Positions 1-57,203 of a stretch of 64,000 bases of DNA are shown piece by piece. Source of the stretch: Candidatus Pacearchaeota archaeon (GTDB lineage: Archaea > Nanobdellota > Nanobdellia > Pacearchaeales > GW2011-AR1). Location: assembly GCA_041649045.1 (NCBI GenBank), contig JBAZNV010000001.1:19756-83755 (forward strand), in the 5' to 3' direction. The translations under genes were made by a program, and so were the position numbers. The notes beneath the pieces were generated by a model, which saw only the letters and a program-made list of their open reading frames with translations, had not been told where the DNA came from and did not search any database. Numbering within the stretch: the stretch's first letter is position 1; each line of letters starts with the position of its first letter.

Positions 1-795
1 CCAATTGTCGGCCTTAAGCCTAATTATAAAAGATTAAGGGAGCTTTCAAAAGAGGGGATTTTGGCCTTTGTTGTTGATTCGCTTTATTCCGGGTCAGAAA
101 GAAAAACTCCATCAGAAAAAATTGCGAGAGCACTTTTGCAGGAAGTTTTGCTTACAATTCAAAATAGAAATGCCGGGATGATTGTTACAACATTTTCGTC
201 ACATATTGCTCGCCTGAAAAGTATTGTGGAATTTGGAAAGCAGTTAGATAGAGAAGTGGTTTTTTTGGGGAGGAGTTTGGATAAATATTCTACTGCGGCA
301 AAAAATGCGAAGCTTGCTCCATTTTTATCCAATATCTGGATTTCTAAATATAGAAGACAAGTTGAAAAAACTTTAGATAAAGTTCAGAAAAAAAGAAAAG
401 ACTACCTTGTTGTTTGCACGGGTCATCAGGGAGAGCCGGGTTCAATTCTTGAAAGGCTTTCGAGAAATCAACTTCCGTTTAAGATAAGCAAAGACGACAA
501 TATAATATTTTCTTCGAGTGTTATTCCAACCGAAGTGAATAGGGAACAATTTGCGAAAATGGAATCAAGACTTAAAAAAAGCAAGCCAAGGATATTCCGA
601 GACGCGCATGTTTCGGGGCATGCCGGGAGAGAAGATTTAAGAGATATAATGCAAATACTTTCTCCAGAACATGTCATTCCGTCGCACGGCGGCTTGGACA
701 AGACGAGGCCAATGTCCAATTTAGTTAAAGATCTTGGGTATAAATTGGGGAAGAATTGTCATTTGATGCAAGATGGAGGAATTTTGAAATTATAA
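1..795 (+). CDS. beta-CASP metallo-beta-lactamase ribonuclease (RNase J / aCPSF-like), C-terminal part; frame is open to window start, so the 5' end lies outside the window
   Basis: beta-CASP motif C HVSGHAGRED and terminal HVIPSHGG motif; frame open from nt 1 with no stop. Confidence 0.7.
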   Translation, partial: PIVGLKPNYKRLRELSKEGILAFVVDSLYSGSERKTPSEKIARALLQEVLLTIQNRNAGMIVTTFSSHIARLKSIVEFGKQLDREVVFLGRSLDKYSTAAKNAKLAPFLSNIWISKYRRQVEKTLDKVQKKRKDYLVVCTGHQGEPGSILERLSRNQLPFKISKDDNIIFSSSVIPTEVNREQFAKMESRLKKSKPRIFRDAHVSGHAGREDLRDIMQILSPEHVIPSHGGLDKTRPMSNLVKDLGYKLGKNCHLMQDGGILKL

Positions 796-1118
796 TGGAA
801 AATTTTGAAGAGGATTTGACTGGTGCAATAAGAAATGGGATAGAAAGAGGTCAGACGTTGGAATCCGTGAAAGCGTCTTTGGTTAATGCAGGGTATAATC
901 TTAAAAAAATCGAAGAAGCAGTGCAGAAAGATCCAGAATTAGCGGTCAAAATTCAAGTCAACACACCTCAAAATTTTGTAGAAGAAGTTAGCAGACCTTT
1001 TATTCCAATAAAACCAAAAAGAATATCAAAGATGATGATAATATATATTTTAATTTTTATTTCGATTTTAGCGATCGGAGGGGTTTTGTTTTTAATATTC
1101 AAAGATTCCTTATTTTAA
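795..1118 (+). CDS. hypothetical protein with C-terminal transmembrane anchor
   Basis: ATG at 795 overlaps upstream stop (TAATG); hydrophobic C-terminus MMIIYILIFISILAIGGVLFLIF. Confidence 0.45.
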   Translation: MENFEEDLTGAIRNGIERGQTLESVKASLVNAGYNLKKIEEAVQKDPELAVKIQVNTPQNFVEEVSRPFIPIKPKRISKMMIIYILIFISILAIGGVLFLIFKDSLF

Positions 1119-1119
1119 A

Positions 1120-1644
1120 ATGAACGAAATTTATCAGCCTTCAGATGACTCCTATTTTTTTTCAAATTTTTTAGGAGATTATTTGAAAGATAAACCACAA
1201 ATTAAATATTTAGATATGGGAGCGGGCAGTGGAATACTTTCAGAGAAAGCGTCGGAGTTTATTGATAAAAAAAATATTTTGGCCGTAGACGTGAACCATG
1301 GGTCAGTTAAACTCTTGCGAGAAAAAGGATTTAATTCTATAAAATCCGATCTTTTTCAAAAGGTAAAAGGATGGTTTGATTTGATAACTTTCAATGCGCC
1401 GTATCTTCCGGAGGACGAAAGGGAGCCGAAAGATTCTGTTGTCGCAACAACTGGGGGGAAGCGTGGGGATGAAATTTCAGTGAAATTTTTGAGACAAGCA
1501 AAAAAACATTTAAATAAAGAGGGCAGAATTTTTTTGTTAATTTCTTCTTTTACTCCGCTTGAGAAAATAAAAAAATTCAATCCGAAAATCGTTGCGCGAA
1601 AAAAAATATTTTTTGAAGAGTTAATGATTTTAGAGATTATGTAG
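1120..1644 (+). CDS. class I SAM-dependent methyltransferase, Mtq2/HemK-like (release-factor glutamine N5-methyltransferase family)
   Basis: SAM motif I DMGAGSG and NPPY-type motif FNAPY; size 174 aa typical of archaeal Mtq2. Confidence 0.65.
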   Translation: MNEIYQPSDDSYFFSNFLGDYLKDKPQIKYLDMGAGSGILSEKASEFIDKKNILAVDVNHGSVKLLREKGFNSIKSDLFQKVKGWFDLITFNAPYLPEDEREPKDSVVATTGGKRGDEISVKFLRQAKKHLNKEGRIFLLISSFTPLEKIKKFNPKIVARKKIFFEELMILEIM

Positions 1645-2956: not shown

Positions 2957-4998
2957 TTATAAAAAAATTAATTATACAAAATATAAGAAGTTACGAGAAC
3001 CTCGAGATAGAATTTTCAAATGGAGCGACTCTTTTATCGGGAGATATAGGCTGCGGGAAAACATCGATCCTTTTGGGTTTGCAATTTGCTCTTTTCGGTC
3101 TTCAGCCGGGGCAGCGTGGGAGTTCTATTCTTAGACAGGGTACCGATTCGGCCTTTGTATCTTTGGAAATTGACATAGATGGGACAGTAATCAAACTTGA
3201 CAGAACACTGAAGAAATCAAAAAATGGCAGCATAACACAAGATTCTAATATTATTTATCTTGGAGATTCCAAAGAAGAACTTTCGACATCAGAAATGAAG
3301 GATAGAATAATAAAAATTTTAAACTATCCGAAAGAGTTTGCCAAAAAATCAAATTTACTTTACAAATATACGGTTTATACTCCACAGGAAGAAATGAAAT
3401 CGATAATACAAGAAAAGGCCGATGTCAGGCTTGATACCTTAAGGCACATTTTTGGAATTGACAGGTATAAAAGAATAAAGGAAAATTCACAAATATTTTT
3501 GCAAAAAATCAAAGATTCGATAAAGATTAAAGAAATTCTTTTTGCAGAATTAAATTTATTGAAAGAGAAAATGAACATGGAAAACGAAAAAAGAATATCG
3601 ATAGTACGGGAAGTAAATAACTTGAATTTTGAATATCAAAAATTATTGGACCAAAAAAATATGCTTGATGAAAAATCAAAACTTTATCAAAAAAAACTTG
3701 ATGAAAAAAAAGAGCTTGATTCGAAAATCTCGAACATGGAAGTTTTGATTCAGGGGAAAAAAGATTTTGAATCGAGAATGAAAAAAGAAATAACCTTGAT
3801 GCAAAAACAAATCAATGAAGAAATAGATTTTTCAGAAGATAAACTTCGAAACACGATAGAACTTTTGGATAAGCATAAAGTTCTTTTTGATGAAATTAAT
3901 TCAAATTTCTTGAAAATTAATTCACAAATTTCCGTCCTTAAATCCAAAAAAGAAGAACCTGTCCGACTTGGCGAAAGAATATCCTCGCTTGAAAATTGTC
4001 CCACATGTTTTCAGGTTGTAGGATATGAGCATAAGGAAAAAATTTCAAAAAGAATTCGTTTCGACATAGAAGATATTAATAGAGAACTTGAACAAAAAAT
4101 AATTGAAAGAGAAAATCTGAACAAAGAAATTGAAAGAGAGAAAGAAGTAATTCTTGGTTATGAAAAAGACAAGAGTGTTTTTCAACAGAATAAAATTAAG
4201 TTTGAGCATCAGCAGATGATTAAAACAAAAATCAAAAGCGATTCCTTTGTTTTAGACAGGACTTGCAACGAAATTTTTTCATTGACGCAGCAAATTAACG
4301 AAGAAAAAAATAGGCTTGAAATTTTTTCCAGAGAAATTGATCTTTTTGCCGGAATAATGGAGGAATTTCAGCAGATAAACGATCTTGTGAGAAAAAAAGA
4401 AATTTTGATTGCTACAAAAAAGAAGGAACTTGATTTGCTTGTAATAAAACTTGAAGAAATTCAATCTGAAATAAGTTCGAAAGAAAAAATAAGAGAGCAG
4501 GTGACTTATCTAATGGGGCTTGCCGATTGGATAGGAGACAAGTTTTTGAACATGATATTACTCACGGAAAAAAATGTTATGGCGAAGCTGAGGTCGGAGT
4601 TCTCGTCTATTTTTAGCGAATGGTTTTCTATGTTGGCTCCGGTTTCGTTATCGGTCAGGCTTGACGAGGAATTTACGCCGATAATTACAAATCAGGATTA
4701 TGAGATAGATTATGAATTTCTTTCCGGTGGCGAAAGAACAGCTGTAGCACTCGCGTACAGACTTGCCTTAAATCAGGTACTCAATTCTCTTTTGTCGAAA
4801 ATCAAGACAAAGGATTTGGTAATTCTCGATGAGCCAACGGATGGTTTTGCGTCAGAACAATTAGATAAAATGAGAGATATTTTTCAACAGCTGAATATGA
4901 AACAAATAATACTTGTGAGCCATGAGCAGAAAATCGAGGGGTTTGTTGATCATGTGATTCGCATAAAGAAAGATCATGTGAGTAAAATAGAAAAATAA
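2953..4998 (+). CDS. rad50: DNA double-strand break repair ATPase Rad50 (short form, 681 aa)
   Basis: Walker A GDIGCGKTS, central zinc hook CPTC within coiled coil, signature LSGGERTAVALAYRLAL, Walker B LVILDEPTDG. Confidence 0.85.
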   Translation: MIIKKLIIQNIRSYENLEIEFSNGATLLSGDIGCGKTSILLGLQFALFGLQPGQRGSSILRQGTDSAFVSLEIDIDGTVIKLDRTLKKSKNGSITQDSNIIYLGDSKEELSTSEMKDRIIKILNYPKEFAKKSNLLYKYTVYTPQEEMKSIIQEKADVRLDTLRHIFGIDRYKRIKENSQIFLQKIKDSIKIKEILFAELNLLKEKMNMENEKRISIVREVNNLNFEYQKLLDQKNMLDEKSKLYQKKLDEKKELDSKISNMEVLIQGKKDFESRMKKEITLMQKQINEEIDFSEDKLRNTIELLDKHKVLFDEINSNFLKINSQISVLKSKKEEPVRLGERISSLENCPTCFQVVGYEHKEKISKRIRFDIEDINRELEQKIIERENLNKEIEREKEVILGYEKDKSVFQQNKIKFEHQQMIKTKIKSDSFVLDRTCNEIFSLTQQINEEKNRLEIFSREIDLFAGIMEEFQQINDLVRKKEILIATKKKELDLLVIKLEEIQSEISSKEKIREQVTYLMGLADWIGDKFLNMILLTEKNVMAKLRSEFSSIFSEWFSMLAPVSLSVRLDEEFTPIITNQDYEIDYEFLSGGERTAVALAYRLALNQVLNSLLSKIKTKDLVILDEPTDGFASEQLDKMRDIFQQLNMKQIILVSHEQKIEGFVDHVIRIKKDHVSKIEK

Positions 4999-17323: not shown

Positions 17324-18232
17324 TTATATATTTTTAAAAATTAGAACTATGGATATAAGAATTAATATAACAAAAATAATCAAAACATAGTGAATCCAGC
17401 TCAAATTTTCGAAAAAATTTGAGGTTTGTGCTTCCTTGATTGCAGAATCCGAGTCGTTGCCCAAATTTATTGAAGAGCTTGTGGCTTTATTAGATGTAAA
17501 TATTACAGGGGTTTCATCTTCAATTTCTCTAACTACAGTTCTTTTAGAATCTGAAGTTGATTTTGACGTTTTTTCACTGTCGAAAATCGAATTTCCCAAA
17601 CTGCCATCGGAATTTATTATGAATAGTTTTATTGTGTAAATTTTATTTTCTTTCAAATTTTCTGCTTTGTATGAATTTTCTTCGCTTGACAAATTAACCT
17701 TGTTAATTTCATTGATATAGACGGCTATGCCGGAAAAATTTTCAGATGGGTTTTCCCATTCCCATAAAATCCATGATTTGGATTTGTCTGCAACTTTCAA
17801 GTTTGAGATTGTGAAATCCGCAGTTTCATTTTGTTGTTCGCTATATACATAAAAAGCAATCCCTTCAGGAGTCCAAACATTATTAGCATAAGTTTCAAGA
17901 ATATGATTTTTTTCATTTTCATCAGCTGTATAGAAATGTGAACTTGTCAATGGACTCCAAAACCTATACACCGGCACTGTATTCTCCTGTTGTTCGCTAT
18001 ATACATAAAAAGCAATCCCTTCAGGAGTCCAAACATTATTAGCATAAGTTTCAAGAATATGATTTTTTTCATTTTCATCAGCTGTATAGAAATGTGAACT
18101 TGTCAATGGACTCCAAAACCTATACACCGGCACTGTATTCTCCTGTGCAGAAACAGTCATCGCTCCTAAAACTAAAAAAAGCACCAACGCCAATACTGTT
18201 TTTGTTAACTTGTTTTCCATCTTAATTATCAC
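17324..18232 (-). CDS. secreted surface protein with two identical DUF5648-like (YRFW...HFYT) repeats and C-terminal TM anchor
   Basis: Signal peptide; 52-aa unit VYRFWSPLTSSHFYT...GIAFYVY repeated twice; C-terminal TM. Confidence 0.6.
   Translation of the reverse strand: MIIKMENKLTKTVLALVLFLVLGAMTVSAQENTVPVYRFWSPLTSSHFYTADENEKNHILETYANNVWTPEGIAFYVYSEQQENTVPVYRFWSPLTSSHFYTADENEKNHILETYANNVWTPEGIAFYVYSEQQNETADFTISNLKVADKSKSWILWEWENPSENFSGIAVYINEINKVNLSSEENSYKAENLKENKIYTIKLFIINSDGSLGNSIFDSEKTSKSTSDSKRTVVREIEDETPVIFTSNKATSSSINLGNDSDSAIKEAQTSNFFENLSWIHYVLIIFVILILISIVLIFKNI
17833..18144. repeat. perfect 156-bp tandem duplication (2 copies) inside surface-protein gene
   Basis: 17833..17988 identical to 17989..18144. 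Confidence 0.9.
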
Positions 18233-29483: not shown

Positions 29484-30437
29484 ATGGAAAATAAAATAAC
29501 ATTCAAAAAACTCGTGGAACTTGTTCTTGAAGAAGCAAAGCAACCATTAACGCCTTTGGAAATTTGGGGAAAGGCTCAGGAAATGCATTTAACTGAAAAA
29601 CTTGGAACCGTCGGTAAAACACCTCATCTGACAATTAGTGCTCAACTTTATGTCGATATTCGCGATAATCCGAAATCTCCTTTTTACCAATTCAGTAGTC
29701 GCCCTGGAAGATTTTTCCTTAAAAAATACAAATCCGGTTTTAAACCCGAGGAAATACCCCTCGAAGAAGAAACAGAAGAAACAAAAACAAAATACCACGA
29801 ACGCGACCTGCATCCTCTTCTTGTAAAATTTGTTAATTCCGCTCCAAACTTCAAAGCTCACGTAAAAACAATTTACCATGAAATAGCGATGAGAAATAAA
29901 AAGGGATTGAATAAATGGCTATATCCTGATTTGGTCGGTGTTCATCTACCATTCCTCGATTTTGATGTACATACATTACAAGTGCAGAAGGAACTTTACT
30001 GGACCGCAGTTCGTTTTTTTAGTTTCGAAATGAAAAAGGAATTAAACATTGGAAATCTCCGTGAATGTTATTTTCAGGCTGTCTCAAACTCTAACTGGGC
30101 AAATGAAGGCTATCTTGTTGTTCTTAACATAATTGATCAGGATGGTGAATTAATGTCGGAGCTTAGAAGATTAAATAATGCCTTTGGAATCGGAGTTATT
30201 CAACTAAATTCCATTGAAATAAATGAGAGCGAGATAATTCTTCCAGCCAAGATAAAACAGGAACTTGATTGGGATACAATTGATTTATTACTGAAAAAAA
30301 ACGGAAATTTCAAAGAGTTCATGGAAATCGTCAAAGGCGACATTACGCTTGGCAAAATTTCAAACAAAGACAATTATGACTCTATAATTCCGGATGAAGC
30401 TTTTCAAGAGTATATTGAGGAGAAGGGGATTGTTTAA
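29484..30437 (+). CDS. HARE-HTH domain fused to PD-(D/E)xK restriction-endonuclease-like nuclease domain
   Basis: HARE-HTH: LTPLEIWGKAQEM...GKTPHLTISAQLYVDIRDNPKSPFYQFSSRPGRFFL; nuclease motifs HERD, YPDLVGV, FEMKK. Confidence 0.6.
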   Translation: MENKITFKKLVELVLEEAKQPLTPLEIWGKAQEMHLTEKLGTVGKTPHLTISAQLYVDIRDNPKSPFYQFSSRPGRFFLKKYKSGFKPEEIPLEEETEETKTKYHERDLHPLLVKFVNSAPNFKAHVKTIYHEIAMRNKKGLNKWLYPDLVGVHLPFLDFDVHTLQVQKELYWTAVRFFSFEMKKELNIGNLRECYFQAVSNSNWANEGYLVVLNIIDQDGELMSELRRLNNAFGIGVIQLNSIEINESEIILPAKIKQELDWDTIDLLLKKNGNFKEFMEIVKGDITLGKISNKDNYDSIIPDEAFQEYIEEKGIV

Positions 30438-30552: not shown

Positions 30553-31200
30553 TTACCTCAGTTTCATTGGGTTGTTTAGTTCGTCTTTTGCTCTATTTCC
30601 TGTCAAATTTTCCCATCTTTCTATGATATGTGAGCAAAAATTGGGATCAATCTCTATTAAAAAGCAGTTTCTTTTCTTGTTTTCGCATGCTATTAGTGTT
30701 GAACCGCTACCGCCAAAAACATCAAGTACGTTTTCTTCTTGCCTTGTGCTGTTTATAATAAAGTGTTCTGCTAATTTTGCGGGTTTCTGGGTTGGATGGA
30801 TGTATGTGTTTGTCCCCTGTCCCCTCTGAATTTCTTTTCTTTGTAATAAAAATAAAGCATTGGCTCGTATTGTGAATGATAATCTCTTGTTGGTATTGAG
30901 AAGCCGTTCTTTACCCACATAATAAATGTTGGCCTGTATCCCAGGTTCTTCATACACCAAGGGTATATTTGTTCGATTTGATTTGTTCCGCAGCACATAT
31001 AAACTGCGCCTTTTACGATTCCTGTGTTGATTAAATCGAGCAATGTTGTTATCTGGAAGTTTACATCATTCATTATTCCGCCAAGCATATTTTTACTCCT
31101 TCCGCCTTTTCTTCTTGCTTCTGGTATGTAGTTTACGCTGTATGGCGGGTCTGTCCATCATATCTGCTTTCTGCCCGGAAGAAAGCTTCATTGCAGTTAT
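30553..31200 (-). pseudogene. beta-class (N6A/N4C) DNA methyltransferase disrupted by at least two frameshifts
   Basis: Motifs in three frames: DPPYS (upstream of annotated ATG, preceded by in-frame TGA), IMWVKNG...HSQYEPMLYF (frame A), HPTQKP...DVFGGSGST (frame B); shift within G-run agaggggacaggggac. Confidence 0.65.
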
Positions 31201-31274
31201 CTGCAAATTGAACAATGCAAAAATTGAACAGTAAACGTATAACTTATATGGAAACGTTAATAAAAATAAAAATT

Positions 31275-31775
31275 TTAAAATGGAGTGGTTATTTTTTGCT
31301 CTTTTTCTAATTTAAGTACCCAACTTATTATTTCAATATCTTTTCCAAGTTCGGTTAATATAAAATAGTGGGTCTTTGCTGCGAAATACTCCATTTGTCG
31401 CTTAGCCATTTTTGAACTCCATTCCTTAAATTTATCCATCACAATTTTATTATCTCCTTGTAAGTTGTCTACATTCCAAATATCCATTATCGAAATTTGT
31501 TTCAAAAGTCCTAATTCAATAAGGGAATAAAGATAATTATAAGCAGTGTTCTTTGACATAAATAATTTTGTTACAAATTCACCAATTCTTCCTGGAGAAT
31601 TATTAAGTAAAACTCCATACGTTTTCCTCAGTTTACTTTTCTCTTTTAACATTCTTTTAATTAACTCTTTTTTATAAGAATGACCTTCCATTGTTTCTTT
31701 GATTTCCAACGCAAGTTCTTCAAATGTCCTTGAGCCCTTCTCTCTTTTTTCAATTCTTATGTTTGGCACATCCAT
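31275..31775 (-). CDS. hypothetical protein with putative winged helix (element-encoded regulator/replication protein)
   Basis: Start at internal Met with GGAGG upstream; TAYNYLYSLIELGLLKQ helix. Confidence 0.4.
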   Translation of the reverse strand: MDVPNIRIEKREKGSRTFEELALEIKETMEGHSYKKELIKRMLKEKSKLRKTYGVLLNNSPGRIGEFVTKLFMSKNTAYNYLYSLIELGLLKQISIMDIWNVDNLQGDNKIVMDKFKEWSSKMAKRQMEYFAAKTHYFILTELGKDIEIISWVLKLEKEQKITTPF

Positions 31776-31831
31776 CTTCCTTGCCCTCCTTCTCCATAAT
31801 CTCAATCATCTTTTGCACAAGAGGATTCAGT

Positions 31832-31972
31832 TCACTTCTCTTCATCTCTACTATCCCCCTCTTCAATGAGAAATCTTATTGTGTCGCCTCGAGTTCGTCG
31901 AAATTTTTTTGCTAACCTGTCGAGCTTTTCTCTCGTTGCTGTATCTAACCTGAAATTAAATGTTGTATTCAT
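31832..31972 (-). CDS. ribbon-helix-helix (CopG/Arc family) protein, 46 aa
   Basis: Not in ORF track (below the 60-aa cutoff); MNTTFNFRLDTATREKLDRLAKKFRRTRGDTIRFLIEEGDSRDEEK fits beta-alpha-alpha RHH. Confidence 0.55.
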   Translation of the reverse strand: MNTTFNFRLDTATREKLDRLAKKFRRTRGDTIRFLIEEGDSRDEEK

Positions 31973-32025
31973 AATAATTACAAGGGAATATGGTATTTAC
32001 GGAGTTACAAACAAAAAGTATCTAA

Positions 32026-33243
32026 TTATTCCACCAGGTTAATAATTTGCTTTAGAGAGCTGACCACGTCCTTTCTTTCTCTTAAAAAACTCATCAGAGC
32101 TACTTCGGTGCTTTCAATTCTTGATTTGTTTACTTCAACTATTACCTCTCCTTCAAGTCTTCTGACCTCAAGTTGTTTTTCCATCTCTTGTTGCTTTCTA
32201 AGTAACTCTGCCATCGCCGAGCTTATAACATCAAGCTTTGTTTTCAATTCTTTGTTTTCATTCTCGGTTTTTACAAAATTATCTCCGGCAAGTTTTATTG
32301 TCTCATCATCTATCAATCCATTCATGTCAATATATCTATCTGGCATTTTTGATGATGCTGACCAGCCATATCTGTAAGAAATCTGAAATCTGTTAAGATG
32401 GTTCGCGTAATAAGTCGCTGATCCGTGCCTGAAAGTATGAGGTGAAATCATTCTACTAAGAAATTGTTTACCCATTCTGTTTGTATATTTTCTCAGGGTC
32501 CCGTAATTTATCGTACATAAAAAATCCTCTTCTCCAAATTTATTCATTTGCAGATATTCGTCAATTATTTTCGGATACAGCGGAAGATTTATTGTTCTCG
32601 GTTTAGTTTTTGAAATTCTTATTCTGACTTTGTAAACTCCATTTTCTTTCACGATGTCGCTCCTTTTGATGTTATAAAATTCTTCGATTCTTGCTCCACT
32701 GTCAAATAAAACAGCTAAAATAAATCGGTAAATTAATTTAGACGAATTTTCTATCAATCGGTCGTTCTCTTGTTTGCTCAAACTTCTGACTTCCGGCATT
32801 CTTGTACTTGTGTCGATGTATTGGACGAGTTTGGGATAATTCTCTTTGTCTCCGAGAAGATATTTGTAATATTTTCTGATAAACTTTTTTATTGTAGACT
32901 GCGTTTCCCATGTGTAAGGATTCCCTTTGGAAGATTTTACAATTCCTCTTTCAAGATTTAGAATAAATGTGTTCATATCGTCTTCTGTGACCTTATCGAA
33001 CGGTTTCTTTAACCACTCGCGATCCATATTCAAAAGTATACCAAGCATTCGCTGCAGCCTTCCAGGCTTGATTTTTCTCTTCTGTCCTTTAAGAATTGTC
33101 TTTCCGATTTCTGCGTCGTATAAAAACTGTAAAATCAAATTTCTGTTCTCAGGAATTAATAACCTGGTCGACCCTGATCTTAGTTTTTCCAACGATCGAT
33201 AATATTTATCTGGGTTTTGGAGTCTGACTATTTTGTCGTCCAT
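32026..33243 (-). CDS. int: tyrosine-type site-specific recombinase/integrase
   Basis: C-terminal catalytic residues: R...HTFRHGSAT...RYGW...Y; adjacent to tRNA gene. Confidence 0.8.
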   Translation of the reverse strand: MDDKIVRLQNPDKYYRSLEKLRSGSTRLLIPENRNLILQFLYDAEIGKTILKGQKRKIKPGRLQRMLGILLNMDREWLKKPFDKVTEDDMNTFILNLERGIVKSSKGNPYTWETQSTIKKFIRKYYKYLLGDKENYPKLVQYIDTSTRMPEVRSLSKQENDRLIENSSKLIYRFILAVLFDSGARIEEFYNIKRSDIVKENGVYKVRIRISKTKPRTINLPLYPKIIDEYLQMNKFGEEDFLCTINYGTLRKYTNRMGKQFLSRMISPHTFRHGSATYYANHLNRFQISYRYGWSASSKMPDRYIDMNGLIDDETIKLAGDNFVKTENENKELKTKLDVISSAMAELLRKQQEMEKQLEVRRLEGEVIVEVNKSRIESTEVALMSFLRERKDVVSSLKQIINLVE

Positions 33244-33327
33244 GGAATATTAACGAAAACCTCCGATATAGTTTTTTAGACTTGAAAAGTATCTAAAATG
33301 TTCCGCAAAACAGGGACAGAAACTTCC

Positions 33328-33343
33328 ATAGCCCCTCCAGGAT
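33328..33343 (+). repeat. att-like direct repeat (proximal copy, overlapping tRNA-Gln 3' end)
   Basis: Identical 16-mer to 19452..19467. Confidence 0.6.
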
Positions 33344-33401
33344 TCGAACCTGGGTCACGGGAGTCAGAGTCCCGTATCCTTGACCGCTAGACTAAAGGGC
33401 T
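33329..33401 (-). tRNA. tRNA-Gln (anticodon CUG)
   Basis: Manual fold: acceptor AGCCCUU/AGGGGCU, anticodon stem CGGGA/UCCCG loop CUCUGAC, T-loop GGUUCGAAUCC. Confidence 0.75.
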
Positions 33402-33556
33402 ATAGAAAATTCAGAAAAAGAAAGTTTAAAAGTTTAGTGGACCTTTAAATTCATTTGTAAAATTTTAGAGAAACTTGCTTGCGTGAATGGCAATGATTGT
33501 GAAAATTAGCGCATTCTTTTAAAAAACTTTATAATGTATGTTGGTTTTAATATTTC

Positions 33557-37608: not shown

Positions 37609-38388
37609 ATGGCGAAAATAAAATTTGGGCCAGGAGGATTGGGTTCAATAAAAGATGCGATTGTTAATTTGTATGAATATCATCGGCTGGGAATTAATGC
37701 GTGCGAGGTTGAGTTCGTATACCGAGTTTATATAAATAAAGAACAGGCAATTGAAATTGGGAAGACGGCGAAGAATTTAGGGATAGGTCTTTCGGTGCAC
37801 TGTCCGTATTATATAAATTTGAATTCTGCTGATTTTGAAAAAATAGAAGCATCAAAAAAAAGAATTTTAAATTGCTGTGAAATTGGGCACTATCTCGGAG
37901 CAAAAAAAATAGTTTTTCATTCGGGATTTTATGGCAACAGGGATTATGAAGAAACTTACGCAAATATCCACAACGCAATTGTTGAAATAAAAAAAGGAAT
38001 AGAAAAAAATAAATGGGACGTCGAACTTTGTCCCGAAATAATGGGCAAGGCGAATGTCTTTGGCTCAATTGAAGATATACAGAGACTTGTGGTTGAGACG
38101 GGTTGTAGTTTTTGCATAGATTTTGCTCATATTCTTGCAAGGTATGGAGAAAATAAATTTAATGAGGTCGCTAAAGCATTTCCACAGGAAAGTTGGCATT
38201 GCCATTTCTCGGGGATTGTATACGGAGAGAAGGGAGAGAAGAATCATATCAAGACGAGCGAAAAAGAATGGGAGGAGTTGTTGAATTTTTTGAAAACTTT
38301 AGATAAAGATGTTGTGATAATTAATGAAAGTCCGACGCCGGTGGAAGATAGCGTGATGGGCAAGAAAGTTTTTGGGGAATTAGATTAA
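37609..38388 (+). CDS. nfo: endonuclease IV (AP endonuclease family 2)
   Basis: HCPYYINLNS, ELCPEIMGK, CIDFAH motifs. Confidence 0.7.
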   Translation: MAKIKFGPGGLGSIKDAIVNLYEYHRLGINACEVEFVYRVYINKEQAIEIGKTAKNLGIGLSVHCPYYINLNSADFEKIEASKKRILNCCEIGHYLGAKKIVFHSGFYGNRDYEETYANIHNAIVEIKKGIEKNKWDVELCPEIMGKANVFGSIEDIQRLVVETGCSFCIDFAHILARYGENKFNEVAKAFPQESWHCHFSGIVYGEKGEKNHIKTSEKEWEELLNFLKTLDKDVVIINESPTPVEDSVMGKKVFGELD

Positions 38389-38604
38389 TTTTTCGAACTC
38401 CTCTTTTGATAAATTAATTTGTTTTAATATTTCAAGCAAAAGTCCTTTTCCTAAGTCTTCATTATTGTGAACTGGCACAACTGTTCTTCTGCCGTCGGGA
38501 TGCTTGAATCTGATATGACTTCCTTTGCCATAAATTTTTTCAAAACCAATTTTTTCTAATACTTTGCACATCTCTTTTCCAGAAACTTTCTTAAGTTTTG
38601 TCAT
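38380..38604 (-). CDS. hicA: HicA toxin (mRNA interferase)
   Basis: KVLEKIGFEKIYGKGSHIRFKHPDGRRTVVPVH...ILKQ. Confidence 0.75.
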   Translation of the reverse strand: MTKLKKVSGKEMCKVLEKIGFEKIYGKGSHIRFKHPDGRRTVVPVHNNEDLGKGLLLEILKQINLSKEEFEKLI

Positions 38605-38605
38605 T

Positions 38606-38836
38606 TTAATTTTCTCGAGGTTTTTCAACTTGAACTCTTTGAATCCCAACAAATTTCATTGGTTTTACATCTTCTTGATCCGCTTCGAGACAAGTCTCAA
38701 TTGCCTCTTTGATTCTTTCTGTGACTTCTTGCAAAGTTTTTCCTTGAGTGTAGCATCCTTCGATTTCGGGAACTTTCGCTACAAAAATTCCATCTTCGTC
38801 TTCCTGGATTATTACATCAAATGTTTCTTTTCCCAT
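38606..38836 (-). CDS. hicB: HicB antitoxin (N-terminal domain only, 76 aa)
   Basis: FDVIIQEDEDGIFVAKVPEIEGCYTQGKTLQEVTERIKEAIETCLE. Confidence 0.7.
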   Translation of the reverse strand: MGKETFDVIIQEDEDGIFVAKVPEIEGCYTQGKTLQEVTERIKEAIETCLEADQEDVKPMKFVGIQRVQVEKPREN

Positions 38837-39408: not shown

Positions 39409-40605
39409 ATGAAAAGAAATTTGCTTTTTGTTCCTTTCGTCGCAGTTTTGACTCTTTTTGTTGTTGGTGCTTCGGCGGCTGAACTTGCGAATAGTGACTT
39501 TGAAACAACATTCAATGGTGTTGAATTATCTGATGATGTTCTCTTCGCGGGGATGGTCGGAGATTCGGTGCCAGTGAGAGTAACTTTCAATGCACTTGAA
39601 GATTCGAGTAATGTTCGTGTAAGGATCAGAATGGAAGGCATAAGGGAAGACATATCTGCTTCGACTGAAAGATTTGATATTATCAGCGGAGTAACGTATA
39701 CAAAGTCTTTAACTTTAGAACTTCCAAGTGATTTGGCGGACACTGATAAGGAGTATACTCTTTATGTTGAAATAGTTTCGGCTGACGGCAGAACTGAAAG
39801 AATGTACTCGATTGTTATGCAAAGAGAATCGTACGAAGTTGAAATTTTGGCTGTTGACTATAACTCAAGAGTTGCGGGCAACGAAGTTGTTCCTGTATCT
39901 GTTGTTGTTAAGAATTCCGGCTTTAATCGATTAGATGATGTTTTCGTTTTGGTTTCTATTCCTGAACTTGGGATAATGTCAAGAGGTTACCTTGGTGACT
40001 TAATTCCAGTAGAAGATTATAGTGACGATTACGAAGATGAAGAAGATTCTGTATCGAAAACTGTTTATTTCAGAGCTCCAGAAAATGTCAAGAGCGGCAT
40101 TTACGAAATGGAAATAATAGTTTACAATGACGATTTCGAAACATCTGTCAAGAGATTGATAAGTGTTGGAGAAGATGGCGTCGTAAATGTTATTGCAGCC
40201 GTAAAGAACAAGGATTTAAAAGCAGGAGAAACTGTAACTTACGATTTGATTATCGTGAATTCTGCAGACAATGTTAGGGTTTTCAACTTGGAAGAAATTT
40301 CAGGAAATGATTTGACTGTTGTTGTTCCTTCGGTAATTACCGTTGGTCCAAAATCCAGTGAAACCGTTTCAATTAGCGTGACAGCTGATGAGAATGCTGA
40401 AGTTGGGACACGAACGTTTTCGGTAGAAGTTGATGGCGAATCTGTAGTCTTCGGTGCTAATGTTGTTGAAGATGGTTATTCGACATCCGTAGTCGCCTTG
40501 ACTGTGATACTTGTTATCGTGTTCATTGTTCTTCTTGCTGTGCTAATAATTCTTCTTACGAGAAAGGAAAAGCCAATGGAAGAAGTAGAAACGAGCTACT
40601 ATTAA
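39409..40605 (+). CDS. cell-surface protein (signal peptide, Ig-like beta-rich ectodomain, C-terminal TM anchor)
   Basis: MKRNLLFVPFVAVLTLFVVGASAA signal; C-terminal VVALTVILVIVFIVLLAVLIILL. Confidence 0.55.
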   Translation: MKRNLLFVPFVAVLTLFVVGASAAELANSDFETTFNGVELSDDVLFAGMVGDSVPVRVTFNALEDSSNVRVRIRMEGIREDISASTERFDIISGVTYTKSLTLELPSDLADTDKEYTLYVEIVSADGRTERMYSIVMQRESYEVEILAVDYNSRVAGNEVVPVSVVVKNSGFNRLDDVFVLVSIPELGIMSRGYLGDLIPVEDYSDDYEDEEDSVSKTVYFRAPENVKSGIYEMEIIVYNDDFETSVKRLISVGEDGVVNVIAAVKNKDLKAGETVTYDLIIVNSADNVRVFNLEEISGNDLTVVVPSVITVGPKSSETVSISVTADENAEVGTRTFSVEVDGESVVFGANVVEDGYSTSVVALTVILVIVFIVLLAVLIILLTRKEKPMEEVETSYY

Positions 40606-40647
40606 TTTTTTTAATTCCTCTTTAATTTTTGAGGATTTTTTGTTTTA

Positions 40648-40840
40648 GCAAGCTTTTTAGAAAAAAGTTTGCTGGGTAAAAACTTAGGGTGCGAAATCTT
40701 CGATTTCGTATTTAATGCGAGAAAAATTATCTTCACGGTTTCGTGTGAAGACGCGTCGGTCATTGCATTTGCCACGACACTCGCCGCTCAAAATTTTATC
40801 TCGCTCGTATTTCGCTCTTCGTGCGCGAGCAGACGCGTAA
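40648..40840 (+). repeat. GC-rich structured intergenic element, copy A (3-member family)
   Basis: Shares 5' about 75 nt with copy C and about 150 nt (about 85% identity) with copy B; conserved core cgtatttaatgcgagaaaaatt followed by hairpins. Confidence 0.6.
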
Positions 40841-40843
40841 AAT

Positions 40844-41302
40844 ATGGAGAAAATGGAAAGACAAAGAATAATACAACCAGAGAAAGAAATTATAATTTAT
40901 CATATTGGAAAATACGAAGATGGGGGACGGGGGCATTTTGGACGAGAATTTGGAGTGTGGTCGCAAATATATCCGTGTCATCTAGAACCTGATAATAAGG
41001 GAGGGTTGATTTATGTTTTGGGAAAGGGCAGTAGGGTGGGCAATTTTTCGGGCAATTTTTTTAGACAAGAATTAATGGGGGCTCTTAGGGCTTTATACAA
41101 TGAACCTTCCCTATCAGTATTAAGAATGTATAGGGTCTGGGATGCAGACTCTTATATTTCTGTAGAAGAAGAGGATAAACTAATTTCGCCAGGGAAAGAA
41201 TTTGTTGATGAGTTATTGGAAACTTCTGCAGTTAGTTTAAAATTAAGAACTGAACCAGTAGGTCAATTAATTAAGGAGGGGTTGATAGAGTTAGCTAGAT
41301 AA
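40844..41302 (+). CDS. hypothetical protein (152 aa)
   Basis: ORF immediately downstream of element A; first of a five-gene co-oriented block. Confidence 0.4.
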   Translation: MEKMERQRIIQPEKEIIIYHIGKYEDGGRGHFGREFGVWSQIYPCHLEPDNKGGLIYVLGKGSRVGNFSGNFFRQELMGALRALYNEPSLSVLRMYRVWDADSYISVEEEDKLISPGKEFVDELLETSAVSLKLRTEPVGQLIKEGLIELAR

Positions 41303-41341
41303 GATGGGAGAAAATTTAGAAAGAGAAATTGGGAGAGAAAA

Positions 41342-41599
41342 ATGAAGAGAAAAATATCTGGAAATTTTAGAAGAGAAGAAACTGGGGCAGATATTGTTGC
41401 CGATGTAGTTTTTAGAGTGTTATTGCCCGCAGCGTTTTTAATTGGAACTAACTATTTTACTAGATGTATGGTCGAAAGAGAAATGAGAAGTTTTTATGAA
41501 CCAATTATAAATTCATCTACTCCAGAAATCGTTCATTCCGACGATAGACTTTATGAACAAATAAGGAATTGGTATAAAAGAGAAAATGGTAGAAAATAA
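41342..41599 (+). CDS. hypothetical protein (85 aa)
   Basis: ORF, part of co-oriented block. Confidence 0.35.
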   Translation: MKRKISGNFRREETGADIVADVVFRVLLPAAFLIGTNYFTRCMVEREMRSFYEPIINSSTPEIVHSDDRLYEQIRNWYKRENGRK

Positions 41600-41605
41600 A
41601 AGAAA

Positions 41606-41932
41606 ATGATACATAGATTATATAGAAATGGAATAAGGAAAATAACTATTATAGATGGCAATGATTTTGTTGGAAGAATAGAAGGAAATATTGAAACAAA
41701 AACGGTGCAAAGGGGAATTTATCATGGAAGAAGGGAATCTGATACCTTATATTATTTAAATACAAAAGACGAGAAGTTGAGAATTTCATTTTGTGGTCGT
41801 GGAAGAATAAGGGATATTAGATCATTTTTTCAGTCCTCAATGTCTGAGTATTATTGGGTAATTAATTTAAAGGCTTTGCAAAATTTAAATCCGAATTACA
41901 AAATATCCAGTCATTTACGGCAAATCAAATAA
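41606..41932 (+). CDS. hypothetical protein (108 aa)
   Basis: ORF, part of co-oriented block. Confidence 0.35.
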   Translation: MIHRLYRNGIRKITIIDGNDFVGRIEGNIETKTVQRGIYHGRRESDTLYYLNTKDEKLRISFCGRGRIRDIRSFFQSSMSEYYWVINLKALQNLNPNYKISSHLRQIK

Positions 41933-41937
41933 ATAAA

Positions 41938-42330
41938 ATGAGAAAAGTAATAGACTATCAAATTGGAAGGTTAGAGGGGGATTTGACGAAGAATCACAAA
42001 TTTATAGTGGAAGAAAGAGACTCTGTCGATGGTTTGGTTTTGGTTTATCATTCTCATATTGTTGATAATTTTGGACAACCTCTTCATAAAAAAATTGTAA
42101 AAATATTCAGTATAAAAAAAGATAGTATATTGGGAGGCGGGTTTGTATTCACTGATGCCTCAATCTTAAATTTTTGTGACTATTCGACAGATTTTGGTGC
42201 TGTTCCGCAATCGGTTCTTGAAAAGTTTGGAGGATTACTTTTACCAAGATATCAAAACGTAGGAATTGAGAGAATTAAAATTGATGTCGATGAAAGAGAT
42301 TTAATGGATTGGTGGAAGGAGATTGTGTGA
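41938..42330 (+). CDS. hypothetical protein (130 aa)
   Basis: ORF, part of co-oriented block. Confidence 0.35.
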   Translation: MRKVIDYQIGRLEGDLTKNHKFIVEERDSVDGLVLVYHSHIVDNFGQPLHKKIVKIFSIKKDSILGGGFVFTDASILNFCDYSTDFGAVPQSVLEKFGGLLLPRYQNVGIERIKIDVDERDLMDWWKEIV

Positions 42331-42596
42331 AGATGGAAGATTGGTGGGGATATCGAGTTATGGAAATGGAAAAAGCAGTTAGAGATATGGGGGTTAGTTC
42401 TGCATTTTTGGCGCATTATTCTCAATTAAGAGGATTAGTCAAGGGAGACGTCGAGAATCTAGAATTAAAAATAGCTATTCAAAGATACAGGGCTTTTAGA
42501 AGTTTATATGAAGTTAAGAATAGTGGAAGGTTGGCAATGTTTGATGGGCAAGTTTCTGCGTTGACTAAAGGATTGAGTAGAATTTGTTTAATATAA
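42309..42596 (+). CDS. hypothetical protein (95 aa)
   Basis: ORF overlapping previous by 22 nt. Confidence 0.35.
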   Translation: MVEGDCVKMEDWWGYRVMEMEKAVRDMGVSSAFLAHYSQLRGLVKGDVENLELKIAIQRYRAFRSLYEVKNSGRLAMFDGQVSALTKGLSRICLI

Positions 42597-42771
42597 AATG
42601 AATGAGCATTGGTGACCCGATTTTCGCAATCAAATTTTTGTTATCAAAGGTGACCCGATTTTTCGCGATGATCAAGTTTTCGCGTGTTTCCCGCCCGCCC
42701 CGAATTAATCGCTTCGCTCCAAAGTTGTAATATGGGGAGTTAAAATACTAACAGTAAAAGAAAAACTTAAG
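42597..42771. repeat. GC-rich segment between convergent genes with tandem ggtgacccgatttt(t)cgc repeats
   Basis: ggtgacccgattttcgc at 42612 and ggtgacccgatttttcgcg at 42651; similar gatgacccgagtcattttg at 16640. Confidence 0.45.
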
Positions 42772-52163: not shown

Positions 52164-52367
52164 ATGGACGGGCTTGATTTGAGAAAATTTCAGGAAGGTG
52201 ATGGGCAAAAACAGGTTGCTGGGATTTTGGGTAAAATTCTTTCTGGACGTGATGGTTATGAAGCGGTGATTGAGAAGAGGAAAGAGATTAGAAGATGTTT
52301 GAAGTGCAATTGGGTTTTGGAAGGCGGTGAGAAATTTTGTCCGGAATGTGGTAGCAAACAAACCTAA
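52164..52367 (+). CDS. small zinc-ribbon protein
   Basis: CLKC...CPEC. Confidence 0.4.
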   Translation: MDGLDLRKFQEGDGQKQVAGILGKILSGRDGYEAVIEKRKEIRRCLKCNWVLEGGEKFCPECGSKQT

Positions 52368-52393
52368 GGTTTTTTTGCTGCATTTTCTTCAGA

Positions 52394-52540
52394 TAGCGAA
52401 ATCTGGCGATTTCGTATTTAATGCAAGACAAAATTATCTTCACCTCTGGTGAAGACGCGACTGTCATTGCGTTCGCAACGACACTGTCGCTCAAAATTTT
52501 GTCTTGCGGGGAATTTATTGCGCGCTTCGGGCGCGCCTAT
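52394..52540 (+). repeat. GC-rich structured intergenic element, copy B
   Basis: About 85% identical to copy A over about 150 nt; contains GCGCGC-UUCGG-GCGCGC hairpin. Confidence 0.6.
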
Positions 52541-52723
52541 CGTTTGAGTGTGTCAAGATGCTTAAGAAGAAAAATTTAAAAATAATTTTAAATTATTTTT
52601 TATTGAAAAAGAGTTCTGATAACTTAAGATGAAAAAAGTTCAACAAGGAATTTATGTGGCAGGTGGCGAATTAAAGATTGCTGTTTTACTTAACTTTAAA
52701 ATCTCTTTTTATTGTTTATAATT

Positions 52724-56591: not shown

Positions 56592-56924
56592 ATGGAAAAA
56601 GATTTGGGCAGAATAAAGAAAAATCCGGAGACCGAGATCTTGGTCCGAATTGATGATTTTGGGGGGAAGCCTGGCTTGACGATTCGAGAATTTGTTACGT
56701 CTGAAAAATATACAGGGTTTACAAAATCTGGGACGAGAATTCCGGTTGAAAGTTTTGAAGCTTTCAAAAAAATGATTAATTCGGTTAAGCCGGGGGATTT
56801 TGGAAACGCGGGTGAAGTGAAACAGGAAAAACTTCCGGTTAAAAAAATTCTTCAAAAAAAGGAAGATTTAGATTTGGACGAGGAATTTGATGATTCCGGG
56901 ATAGATGACGAAGGACTAATTTAA
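56592..56924 (+). CDS. PC4/Sub1-like ssDNA-binding transcriptional cofactor with acidic tail
   Basis: ILVRIDDFGGKPGLTIREFVTSEKYTGFTKSGTRIPVESFEAF resembles PC4 C-terminal domain. Confidence 0.5.
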   Translation: MEKDLGRIKKNPETEILVRIDDFGGKPGLTIREFVTSEKYTGFTKSGTRIPVESFEAFKKMINSVKPGDFGNAGEVKQEKLPVKKILQKKEDLDLDEEFDDSGIDDEGLI

Positions 56925-56927
56925 GCT

Positions 56928-57112
56928 AAACTTTTAGAAAAAGTTTGGCTGGATTAAAACTTATGTTGCGGAACTTCGTTCCGTATTTACTGCGAGAAAA
57001 ATTTTCTCGCGAATTGAGTTCGCGAGCCGATTCCCCCAAACTTTGTTTGGGTCCGGAATCGGACAAATTTTTACTCGCGGGAAATTTGTTGCGCGCTTTA
57101 GACTCGCGCAGT
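56928..57112 (+). repeat. GC-rich structured intergenic element, copy C
   Basis: Shares 5' about 75 nt with copy A (cttttagaaaaagtttggctgg...cgtatttactgcgagaaaaatt), then different hairpins. Confidence 0.55.
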
Positions 57113-57203
57113 GTTTGAAACGTGGTAGATATTTGAAAAAGATAATTATTTTTGTTTTATTGATTTTTGTTTATTCCGCCATCTTTAAATATTCTCTCTT
57201 CTC

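Follow-up and report, generated by a model that had tools for sequence, protein, structure and literature searches.

What are the three related, hairpin-dense sequences that lie between genes in one stretch of the genome of a Candidatus Pacearchaeota archaeon, and what put them there? The stretch, referred to here as the window (64,000 nucleotides, nt; contig JBAZNV010000001.1 of assembly GCA_041649045.1, positions 19,756 to 83,755 of the forward strand), belongs to the DPANN archaea, whose genomes are tiny and tightly packed and from which we know of no characterised non-coding RNA or mobile repeat. An earlier note on this DNA had offered three readings of the sequences: a structured non-coding RNA, a family of cis-regulatory leaders with a TATA-like box of their own, or a MITE (a miniature transposable element with inverted repeats) aimed at the gaps between terminators and promoters. 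Genome comparison shows that the copies are insertions relative to close relatives. We put the probability at about one half that they belong to a non-autonomous mobile element that spreads through a single-stranded intermediate and whose 5' palindrome provides the gene upstream with its terminator or 3'-end hairpin.

RESULTS

A family of five copies

The window carries three related plus-strand elements of 195-197 nt, namely A (40647-40843, 197 nt), B (52353-52547, about 196 nt) and C (56924-57118, 195 nt). Reading, alignment and a repeat search of the window all place the three together, which bears out the earlier note's claim of homologous plus-strand elements at these places. Its estimate of about 85% identity between A and B over some 150 nt comes close to the 83% that we measured over 170 aligned nt; A and C are 76% identical, and B and C are 77% identical. 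A second assembly from this population carries all three copies unchanged. In a window with 34% G+C, the whole elements have 43-47%, and the note's islands of about 50% exist as 80-nt peaks (51-55%) but not as entire elements.

The family was recovered with MAFFT, nhmmer and a covariance model, and it has two members outside the window. Copy W, of 229 nt, occupies positions 3562-3790 on the minus strand of L026, in a metagenome-assembled genome labelled Woesearchaeota (L008 = L026 = L027); when a strict 20-nt pattern of the core was run against 185,579 species genomes and the JGI metagenomes, the lineage of W was the sole true member, the other matches being due to chance. The copy in L037 (5713-5834) was found by nhmmer with an E value of 2.5e-13 and a profile built without L037, in the genome with the closest ABCE1 relative (78% identity), and it is interrupted by the end of the contig. 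Both outside copies have the same parts as the window copies, and sizes in the family are 195-230 nt. Additional copies therefore exist in two other DPANN genomes, but there is no fourth copy within the 83 kilobases (kb) of this contig that were examined for copies and for mobility genes. About 130 kb of syntenic DNA from relatives contained none. From these genomes, the family is patchy among Pacearchaeota- and Woesearchaeota-type DPANN archaea.

The order of parts is the same in every copy. Each begins with P0, a 12-base-pair (bp) palindromic hairpin in which a run of four to seven T (T4-T7) is always present, followed by an AAAACTT linker, hairpin P1, a single-stranded segment reading TATTTAMT, a P2 domain and a 3' tail. 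In the P2 domain, a long-range helix (GCGAGAAAAATT with AATTTT(A)TCTCGC) closes a three-way junction that holds hairpins P3 and P4, and the strands joining the junction are short and without conservation. The tail carries a GC hairpin, P5. The core CGTATTTAMTGCRAGA is conserved in the copies together with AAAACTT and the 5' hairpin, all of which the earlier note had correctly seen in A and C.

Copies are insertions relative to close relatives

At three orthologous sites, a filled locus can be set against an empty one. The gap between the Zn-ribbon gene and ABCE1 measures 357 nt in this genome, where it contains copy B, against 38-48 nt in relatives with 73-75% ABCE1 identity, and the covariance model detected no element in the gaps of those relatives. 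The site after ABCE1 holds a copy in L037 and is a plain 34-nt spacer in this genome. Between carS and the RNase P RNA gene, W takes up 229 nt, compared to about 8 nt (ACTTTTTA) at this site in the sisters L097 and L098 (87% and 80% CarS identity). A further sister, L099 (92% CarS identity), has a solo P0, GCAATCTTTTTAGAAAAAAGTTTG, that is identical to the P0 of W and lies directly after the RNase P RNA gene (1273-1300, minus strand); beyond it come about 100 nt and then a gene for a 154-amino-acid (aa) ORFan protein (692-1156, minus strand) with its own TATA box, and there is no P1-P5 body. The point at which W and L099 diverge is exactly the 3' foot of P0. These comparisons show the copies to be insertions and the modules to be separable, the latter being the P0 hairpin, the P1-P4 body and either of two alternative 3' tails (type 1 in A and W, type 2 in B and C). 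As judged from the genomes compared, the family behaves as one that spreads within and between related DPANN genomes and not by vertical inheritance.

The ends of the insertions do not follow the pattern of a classical MITE. No copy carries, at its 3' end, the reverse complement of the 5' end (AGCAAGC...), the sole long inverted repeat being P2, which is internal, and no target duplication appears when filled and empty sites are compared (W against L097 and L098, L037 against the window). The left flanks read TTTTA in A and L037, TTTAA in C, TGGTA in B and CCACT in W. The elements are short, non-coding, multi-copy and polymorphic, as MITEs are, but without terminal inverted repeats and target duplication they are not classical MITEs; what stands of the MITE proposal is the insertion polymorphism and the siting at gene 3' ends. 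Of the three readings in the earlier note, that of a MITE lies nearest to what was observed.

Every copy sits at the 3' end of an upstream gene

In all five copies the constant neighbour lies upstream, namely the 3' end of a same-strand gene, and not downstream. The upstream transcription units are protein genes or the RNase P RNA gene, the copies are in the sense orientation to them, and every P0 either starts 0-41 nt past the end of the upstream gene or overlaps it. Element A begins 41 nt past the stop codon (40603-40605) of a 398-aa gene. The opening 15 nt of B overlap the end of a 67-aa Zn-ribbon gene (52164-52367), of which they form the final four codons and the stop. Base 1 of C doubles as the final base of a stop codon (56922-56924), that of a 110-aa PC4-like gene; the L037 copy overlaps the stop codon of ABCE1, and W begins one base past the RNase P RNA gene.

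Contact with the next gene, in contrast, is found in A only, whose 3' limit at 40843 is the base preceding the ATG (40844) of an ORFan gene; this right end was placed by homology with W, for which an empty site fixes the boundary. From the end of B to the ATG of ABCE1 (52724) there are 176 nt, and from the end of C to the ATG of the gene for acetyl-CoA synthetase alpha (ACS-alpha, 57213) there are 94 nt, so that the position directly upstream of a plus-strand gene, which the earlier note gave for all three, applies to A alone. W occupies the interval that runs from the RNase P RNA gene's 3' end to the stop codon of the convergent carS. The RNA gene matches RF00373 with 75 bits (E value 1e-20), and that carS is a real gene is shown by 186 homologues, several of them named CDP-archaeol synthase. 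The RNase P RNA gene (L026 3791-4073, minus strand) lies downstream of a 16S-tRNA-23S cluster on the same strand, and since its 75 bits fall below the Rfam gathering score of 84, default annotation would miss it.

Compensatory changes in every helix

Compensatory substitutions, which the earlier note had named as a check, are present in every helix of the five sequences. In P0, aligned with MAFFT blind to structure, 95% of the cells are paired and 8 of the 12 pairs have changed on both sides, a result matched by none of 500 shuffles; controls with slid partners gave 38-62% pairing. In P1-P5, for which the alignment was fitted to the covariance model, 90% of the cells are paired, compared to 33-50% with slid partners, and 16 of 49 pairs have changed on both sides. 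As the figures come from five sequences, about four of them independent, this support is suggestive rather than conclusive. Measured against dinucleotide shuffles, folding z-scores were -6.9 for B, -6.75 for C and -2.5 for A, with a range of -5.9 to -6.9 over B, C and W. On the plus strand there are 12 G.T pairs against 3 A.C pairs, and A and C fold better on the plus than on the minus strand. The strongest sequence conservation is internal, in the core and P2, and away from the ends of the element.

The comparison further shows that hairpins are retained as hairpins though their sequences change. P3 is common to A, B and L037, and the canonical P0 is common to A, C, W and L037. The hairpin that follows the core is tcttcac/gtgaaga in A and B and ctcgcgaa/ttcgcgag in C, so that the earlier description of differing hairpins holds for C against the other two, while A and B are alike. 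The P3 and P4 of W differ again in sequence (tcgtgag/ctcacga and tgtccatt/aatggaca).

Helices of the individual copies

All features of the three window copies are on the plus strand. P0 of A (40647-40673) is the 12-bp hairpin AGCAAGCTTTTT-AGA-AAAAAGTTTGCT, with T5 on the plus strand and T6 on the minus strand, and P1 (40691-40709) is GCGAAATC-TTC-GATTTCGT. The most conserved block of A (40707-40731, CGTATTTAATGCGAGAAAAATTATC) consists of the single-stranded TATTTAAT and the 5' strand of P2. The P2 domain (40717-40804), closed by GCGAGAAAAATT and AATTTT(A)TCTCGC, encloses P3 (40730-40751) and P4 (40753-40787), and the type 1 tail (40805-40843) has a weak hairpin at 40822-40839.

The earlier note had B lacking the 5' module, but B starts at 52353 with a diverged P0 (52353-52379), AGCAAACAAACC-TAA-GGTTTTTTTGCT, in which the loop is the stop codon of the Zn-ribbon gene (52365-52367), the stem contains a T7 run, and the inner stem is flipped relative to A through compensatory changes. 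P1 of B lies at 52396-52415. Its P2 domain (52423-52507) is closed by a perfect 13-bp helix, GCAAGACAAAATT/AATTTTGTCTTGC, and encloses P3 (52437-52455) and P4 (52457-52490); in the type 2 tail, P5 (52520-52536) is GCGCGC-TTCGG-GCGCGC, followed by CTATCGTTTGA. C opens with P0 at 56924-56950 (AGCTAAACTTTT-AGA-AAAAGTTTGGCT), and its P1 (56968-56984, GCGGAAC-TTC-GTTCCGT) is compensated relative to A and B. The P2 domain of C (56992-57078) encloses P3 (57006-57026, CTCGCGAA/TTCGCGAG) and P4 (57027-57062, CCGATTCC-CCCAAAC/GTTTGGG-GGAATCGG), and P5 (57091-57109) is GCGCG...CGCGC, followed by AGTGTTTGA. The CGCGC-rich end stems of the earlier note are thus clear in B and C but weak in A.

AAGTTT in the 3' half of P0 could pair with AAACTT of the linker in an alternative 6-bp helix that would exclude P0. 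This pairing spans 40666-40686 in A and 56942-56964 in C; it is kept in A, C, W and L037, is lost in B, and is without covariation.

Promoters lie outside the elements

A typical gene of the window has a TTTAWAWA box ending 19 nt before its ATG, and most mRNAs are accordingly leaderless. A matrix trained on 34 promoters of the window, in which real promoters have a median of 8.3 bits, found no canonical TATA box inside any copy. The candidate box TATTTAAT fails this matrix, and a start about 25 nt further on would lie in the loop of the covarying P3. In P0 of A and C, TTTAGAAAAA reaches a marginal 5.4 bits (top 0.6% of window positions) and sits at the canonical distance of 19 nt from a conserved motif before P1, AAACTT followed by R; it has no counterpart in B, where the best plus-strand score is 1.5 bits. 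ABCE1 has its own canonical TATA box at 52695-52704 (plus strand, 8.4 bits), 19 nt before its ATG and outside B, and B is therefore not the ABCE1 leader. ACS-alpha likewise has one at 57184-57193 (plus strand, 8.2 bits), 19 nt before its ATG and outside C.

The spacer between B and ABCE1 also holds a strong orphan TATA-like site, TTTAAAAATA (52575-52584, 9.4 bits), with no evident gene 19 nt on, and a possible 31-codon open reading frame (ORF) from 52629. The spacers 3' of B and of C, when compared, showed a weak, AT-rich and unconvincing resemblance.

Searches for known families

No Rfam model reached its gathering score in the window, the best matches on A having E values of 1.4-8, and a permissive search (E value up to 5) gave nothing over the body of B or C. 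Rfam covers riboswitches, ribozymes, HgcC-type RNAs, HEARO, the group II intron, 5S, SRP and RNase P RNA, and none of these matched an element. ARAGORN found no tRNA gene in the elements, and reading them revealed no C/D box, H/ACA, bulge-helix-bulge or 5S-like features. In the genome of W, no complementarity of at least 10 nt to 16S rRNA, 23S rRNA or RNase P RNA was found. BLAST against phages and plasmids gave no similarity to the elements, and two scans of viral contigs returned chance matches only. An integron attC site (RYYYAAC ... GTTRRRY) was rejected as well, as the elements end in AGCAA... and in ...GTTTGA or ...GTAGAT and have several hairpins instead of one; the sole tyrosine recombinase, 7 kb away beside tRNA-Gln, lends that identity no support either. 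Altogether, the family is real and not due to chance, is without a match to described RNA families, and is best filed as a kind of small structured intergenic mobile repeat.

Neighbouring genes and other features of the window

Five small ORFan genes (149, 85, 108, 130 and 94 aa) follow directly after A (40853-42596), with no canonical TATA box before the first. As the coding part of an autonomous element they were rejected, none of them having a Pfam or PHROG match. Outside this organism the first is without homologues, the far end of the block repeats neither the element nor P0, and the window ORFans are unrelated to the 154-aa ORFan of L099. Within the convergent gap from this block to the stop of an SMC gene (42597-42771) are a cccgcccgcccc tract and the direct repeat GGTGACCCGATTTT (42611 and 42649). 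The gap was dismissed as a further structured RNA, with z = +1.1 on both strands and no relation to the elements. About 2 kb upstream of A is a pair of genes for a HicA toxin and a HicB antitoxin (38380-38836, minus strand).

A tyrosine integrase gene (32026-33243, minus strand) adjoins tRNA-Gln (33328-33402, minus strand), and farther from the tRNA lie genes for an N6/N4 methyltransferase (30553-30957, minus strand) and a HARE-HTH protein (29484-30437, plus strand). The region 30553-33402 is probably an integrated element. Elsewhere, a minus-strand ORF with DUF5648 and fibronectin type III domains (17324-18232) contains a perfect 156-nt tandem duplication (17832-18143; two copies, 100% identical).

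DISCUSSION

A proposed mobile element at gene ends

The explanation that we favour, at a probability of roughly 50%, is a non-autonomous mobile element. It would be copied or moved through a single-stranded intermediate, either DNA, as in IS200/IS605-type insertion sequences and palindrome-associated transposable elements (PATEs), or RNA, and an enzyme supplied in trans would recognise the hairpins rather than their sequences. Once inserted, the element would be transcribed as a trailer of the upstream gene, for which P0 with its T4-T7 run would be the putative oligo-T terminator or 3'-end hairpin. If P0 is a terminator, insertion would be harmless, and the survival of a lone P0 in L099 would be accounted for. 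Mobility is shown by comparing genomes, whereas the enzyme, the intermediate and P0's role as a terminator are inferred.

Several observations weigh against this explanation. The 83 kb examined contain no gene for a transposase, reverse transcriptase, HUH/Rep protein, TnpA or TnpB, and the sole recombinase, the integrase beside tRNA-Gln, is at 32 kb, 7 kb from the nearest element. We found no autonomous relative with the same ends. P0 does not resemble the 3' hairpin, whereas the palindromes of PATEs and IS605 resemble each other, the left flanks point to no consistent target, and the copy number is low, at three in 83 kb. The terminator role of P0 is putative, and termination in archaea requires a T run only. 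The covariation is drawn from a small sample, with a model-fitted alignment for P1-P5, and the exchange of whole P3 and P4 hairpins for other perfect ones has more the look of selection on a functional RNA than of a decaying repeat. There is a small chance that this is an undescribed kind of mobile element in archaea, with a functional RNA (a guide, a scaffold or a self-processing RNA) as its multi-helix body; the RNA would promote the spread of the element, which would home to the 3' ends of transcription units and donate a terminator hairpin there.

Alternative explanations

The structured RNA of the earlier note fares best among the other readings, though we hold it to be doubtful that the elements are in essence genes for structured small RNAs of about 150 nt (P1 to P5) that duplicate and move between genomes, with the single-stranded UAUUUAAU as a protein- or RNA-binding site and with expression from the weak TATA-like site in P0 or by processing of the upstream 3' trailer. 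Covariation in every helix, the exchange of P3 and P4 for other perfect hairpins, the excess of G.T over A.C pairs with the better plus-strand fold of A and C, the internal position of the most conserved block and the canonical spacing of TTTAGAAAAA in A and C are what such genes would lead one to expect, and MITE-like small-RNA genes have a precedent in the archaeon Pyrobaculum (PMC6009581). However, the best-folded copy, B, lacks any TATA-like site, 5.4 bits is below most real promoters here, and no copy has a canonical promoter. Vertical inheritance is missing too: absence from close relatives at three sites indicates no conserved cellular function. The lack of an Rfam match, of C/D or H/ACA box features and, in the genome of W, of complementarity of at least 10 nt to the rRNAs and RNase P RNA also speaks against a small RNA. 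A protein product is hardly credible. An ORF of 51 aa was called on C in a strain assembly (56963-57118); it covers P1-P5, and its ATG is 19 nt past the TATA-like site in P0, but in A, B and W the frame from the equivalent start meets a stop within 8-11 codons, the indels between copies are not multiples of three and the conserved core is in different frames in C and L037. There is no shared reading frame, which refutes the idea of a small protein.

The solo P0 of L099 raises a different idea, that P0 is a recombination or integration site and a hot spot for variable cargo, be it the body or ORFan genes. The unrelated 154-aa ORFan in place of the body, the break between W and L099 exactly at the foot of P0 and the five ORFans without a canonical promoter behind A fit this idea, which we nevertheless find improbable: no recombinase adjoins any copy, the ORFan proteins of L099 and the window are unrelated, the far end of the five-gene block has neither element nor P0, and B, C, L037 and W are without cargo genes. 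The 12-3-12 palindrome is also unlike the usual layout of a tyrosine recombinase core site. More improbable still is that the elements serve the downstream gene as a cis-regulatory 5' leader or promoter cassette, the earlier note's suggestion of leaders with a TATA-like box of their own. In the window, each of the three copies points the same way as the next gene, and A, which reaches the start codon of an ORFan operon without a canonical TATA box of its own, may lie in the 5' untranslated region of that operon. For the other four copies a leader fails, since the AT-rich spacers after B and C hold canonical TATA boxes at leaderless distance, W runs into a convergent gene's stop codon and the L037 copy follows ABCE1. 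Moreover, the downstream genes are functionally unrelated, the short, unconserved junction strands are unlike a ligand pocket, and TATTTAAT fails the promoter matrix as a TATA box, while a start 25 nt past it would lie in the loop of P3.

Significance

Should the mobile element explanation be true, gene-end insertions that leave a terminator-like hairpin would show how selfish DNA is tolerated in compact genomes, and the element could even be co-opted for 3'-end formation. The family would also mark recent gene exchange between lineages of the Pacearchaeota and Woesearchaeota types. A body that proves to be a functional RNA would amount to a new RNA family, clearly covarying and tied to mobility in a way that can be tested, and if that RNA drives the spread, it would represent RNA-centred transposition in DPANN archaea with no recognisable transposase nearby. 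For annotation, the family accounts for contig breaks, as in L037, which ends within a copy, and for spurious small ORFs such as the one on C.

Comparison with known systems

Bacterial class C group II introns insert in the sense orientation just downstream of terminator hairpins. The present elements, at about 200 nt, are far too small to be such introns, have no Rfam match to domain V/VI and come without a reverse transcriptase. BOX, ERIC, REP/BIME and Correia are bacterial intergenic repeats that are transcribed with their neighbours and can serve as terminators or RNA stabilisers; a genome holds tens to hundreds of copies of them, and several have inverted terminal repeats. The elements resemble them in being mosaics of separable modules with stable hairpins that are intergenic and often at 3' ends, but they differ in being archaeal, in having three copies in 83 kb and in having no sequence relation to any of these families. 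The omega RNA of TnpB (IS200/IS605) and the bridge RNA of IS110, guide RNAs that the ends of these elements encode, are structured RNAs, about 150-200 nt long, which belong to mobile elements and are under selection at the RNA level, and an RNA of this kind would explain covariation inside a mobile repeat; here, however, no tnpB, iscB or IS110 recombinase gene lies beside any copy, and there is no Rfam match.

Two archaeal systems come closer. The MITE-like small-RNA elements of Pyrobaculum calidifontis have C and D boxes and flanking conserved inverted repeats and lie far from genes (PMC6009581), in contrast to the elements described here, which have neither feature and abut gene ends. Both are archaeal, species-restricted mobile repeats of unstable regions, and in Pyrobaculum such repeats are a source of structured small RNAs, as they may be here.

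The closest described class is that of the archaeal PATEs, to which we compare the family by resemblance and not by established membership. PATEs are transposase-free derivatives of IS200/IS605-type transposons in haloarchaea, with near-terminal palindromes and heterogeneous sequences but without inverted terminal repeats or target duplications (PMC3119063). In our elements, by contrast, the end palindromes are unalike (an AT-rich P0 and a GC-rich 3' hairpin), P0 is at base 1 and leaves no room for the left-end guide bases of IS605, the five left flanks suggest no consistent target oligonucleotide, the 83 kb contain no IS605-type transposon, TnpA or TnpB, and the interior holds a large three-way-junction domain that shows covariation. 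The likeness is nevertheless considerable: here too the copies are short and non-coding, with no terminal inverted repeats or target duplication, a palindrome lies close to either end (P0 and P5), their sequences are heterogeneous, and their insertions are specific to strain or species and to one strand, as single-strand transposition predicts.

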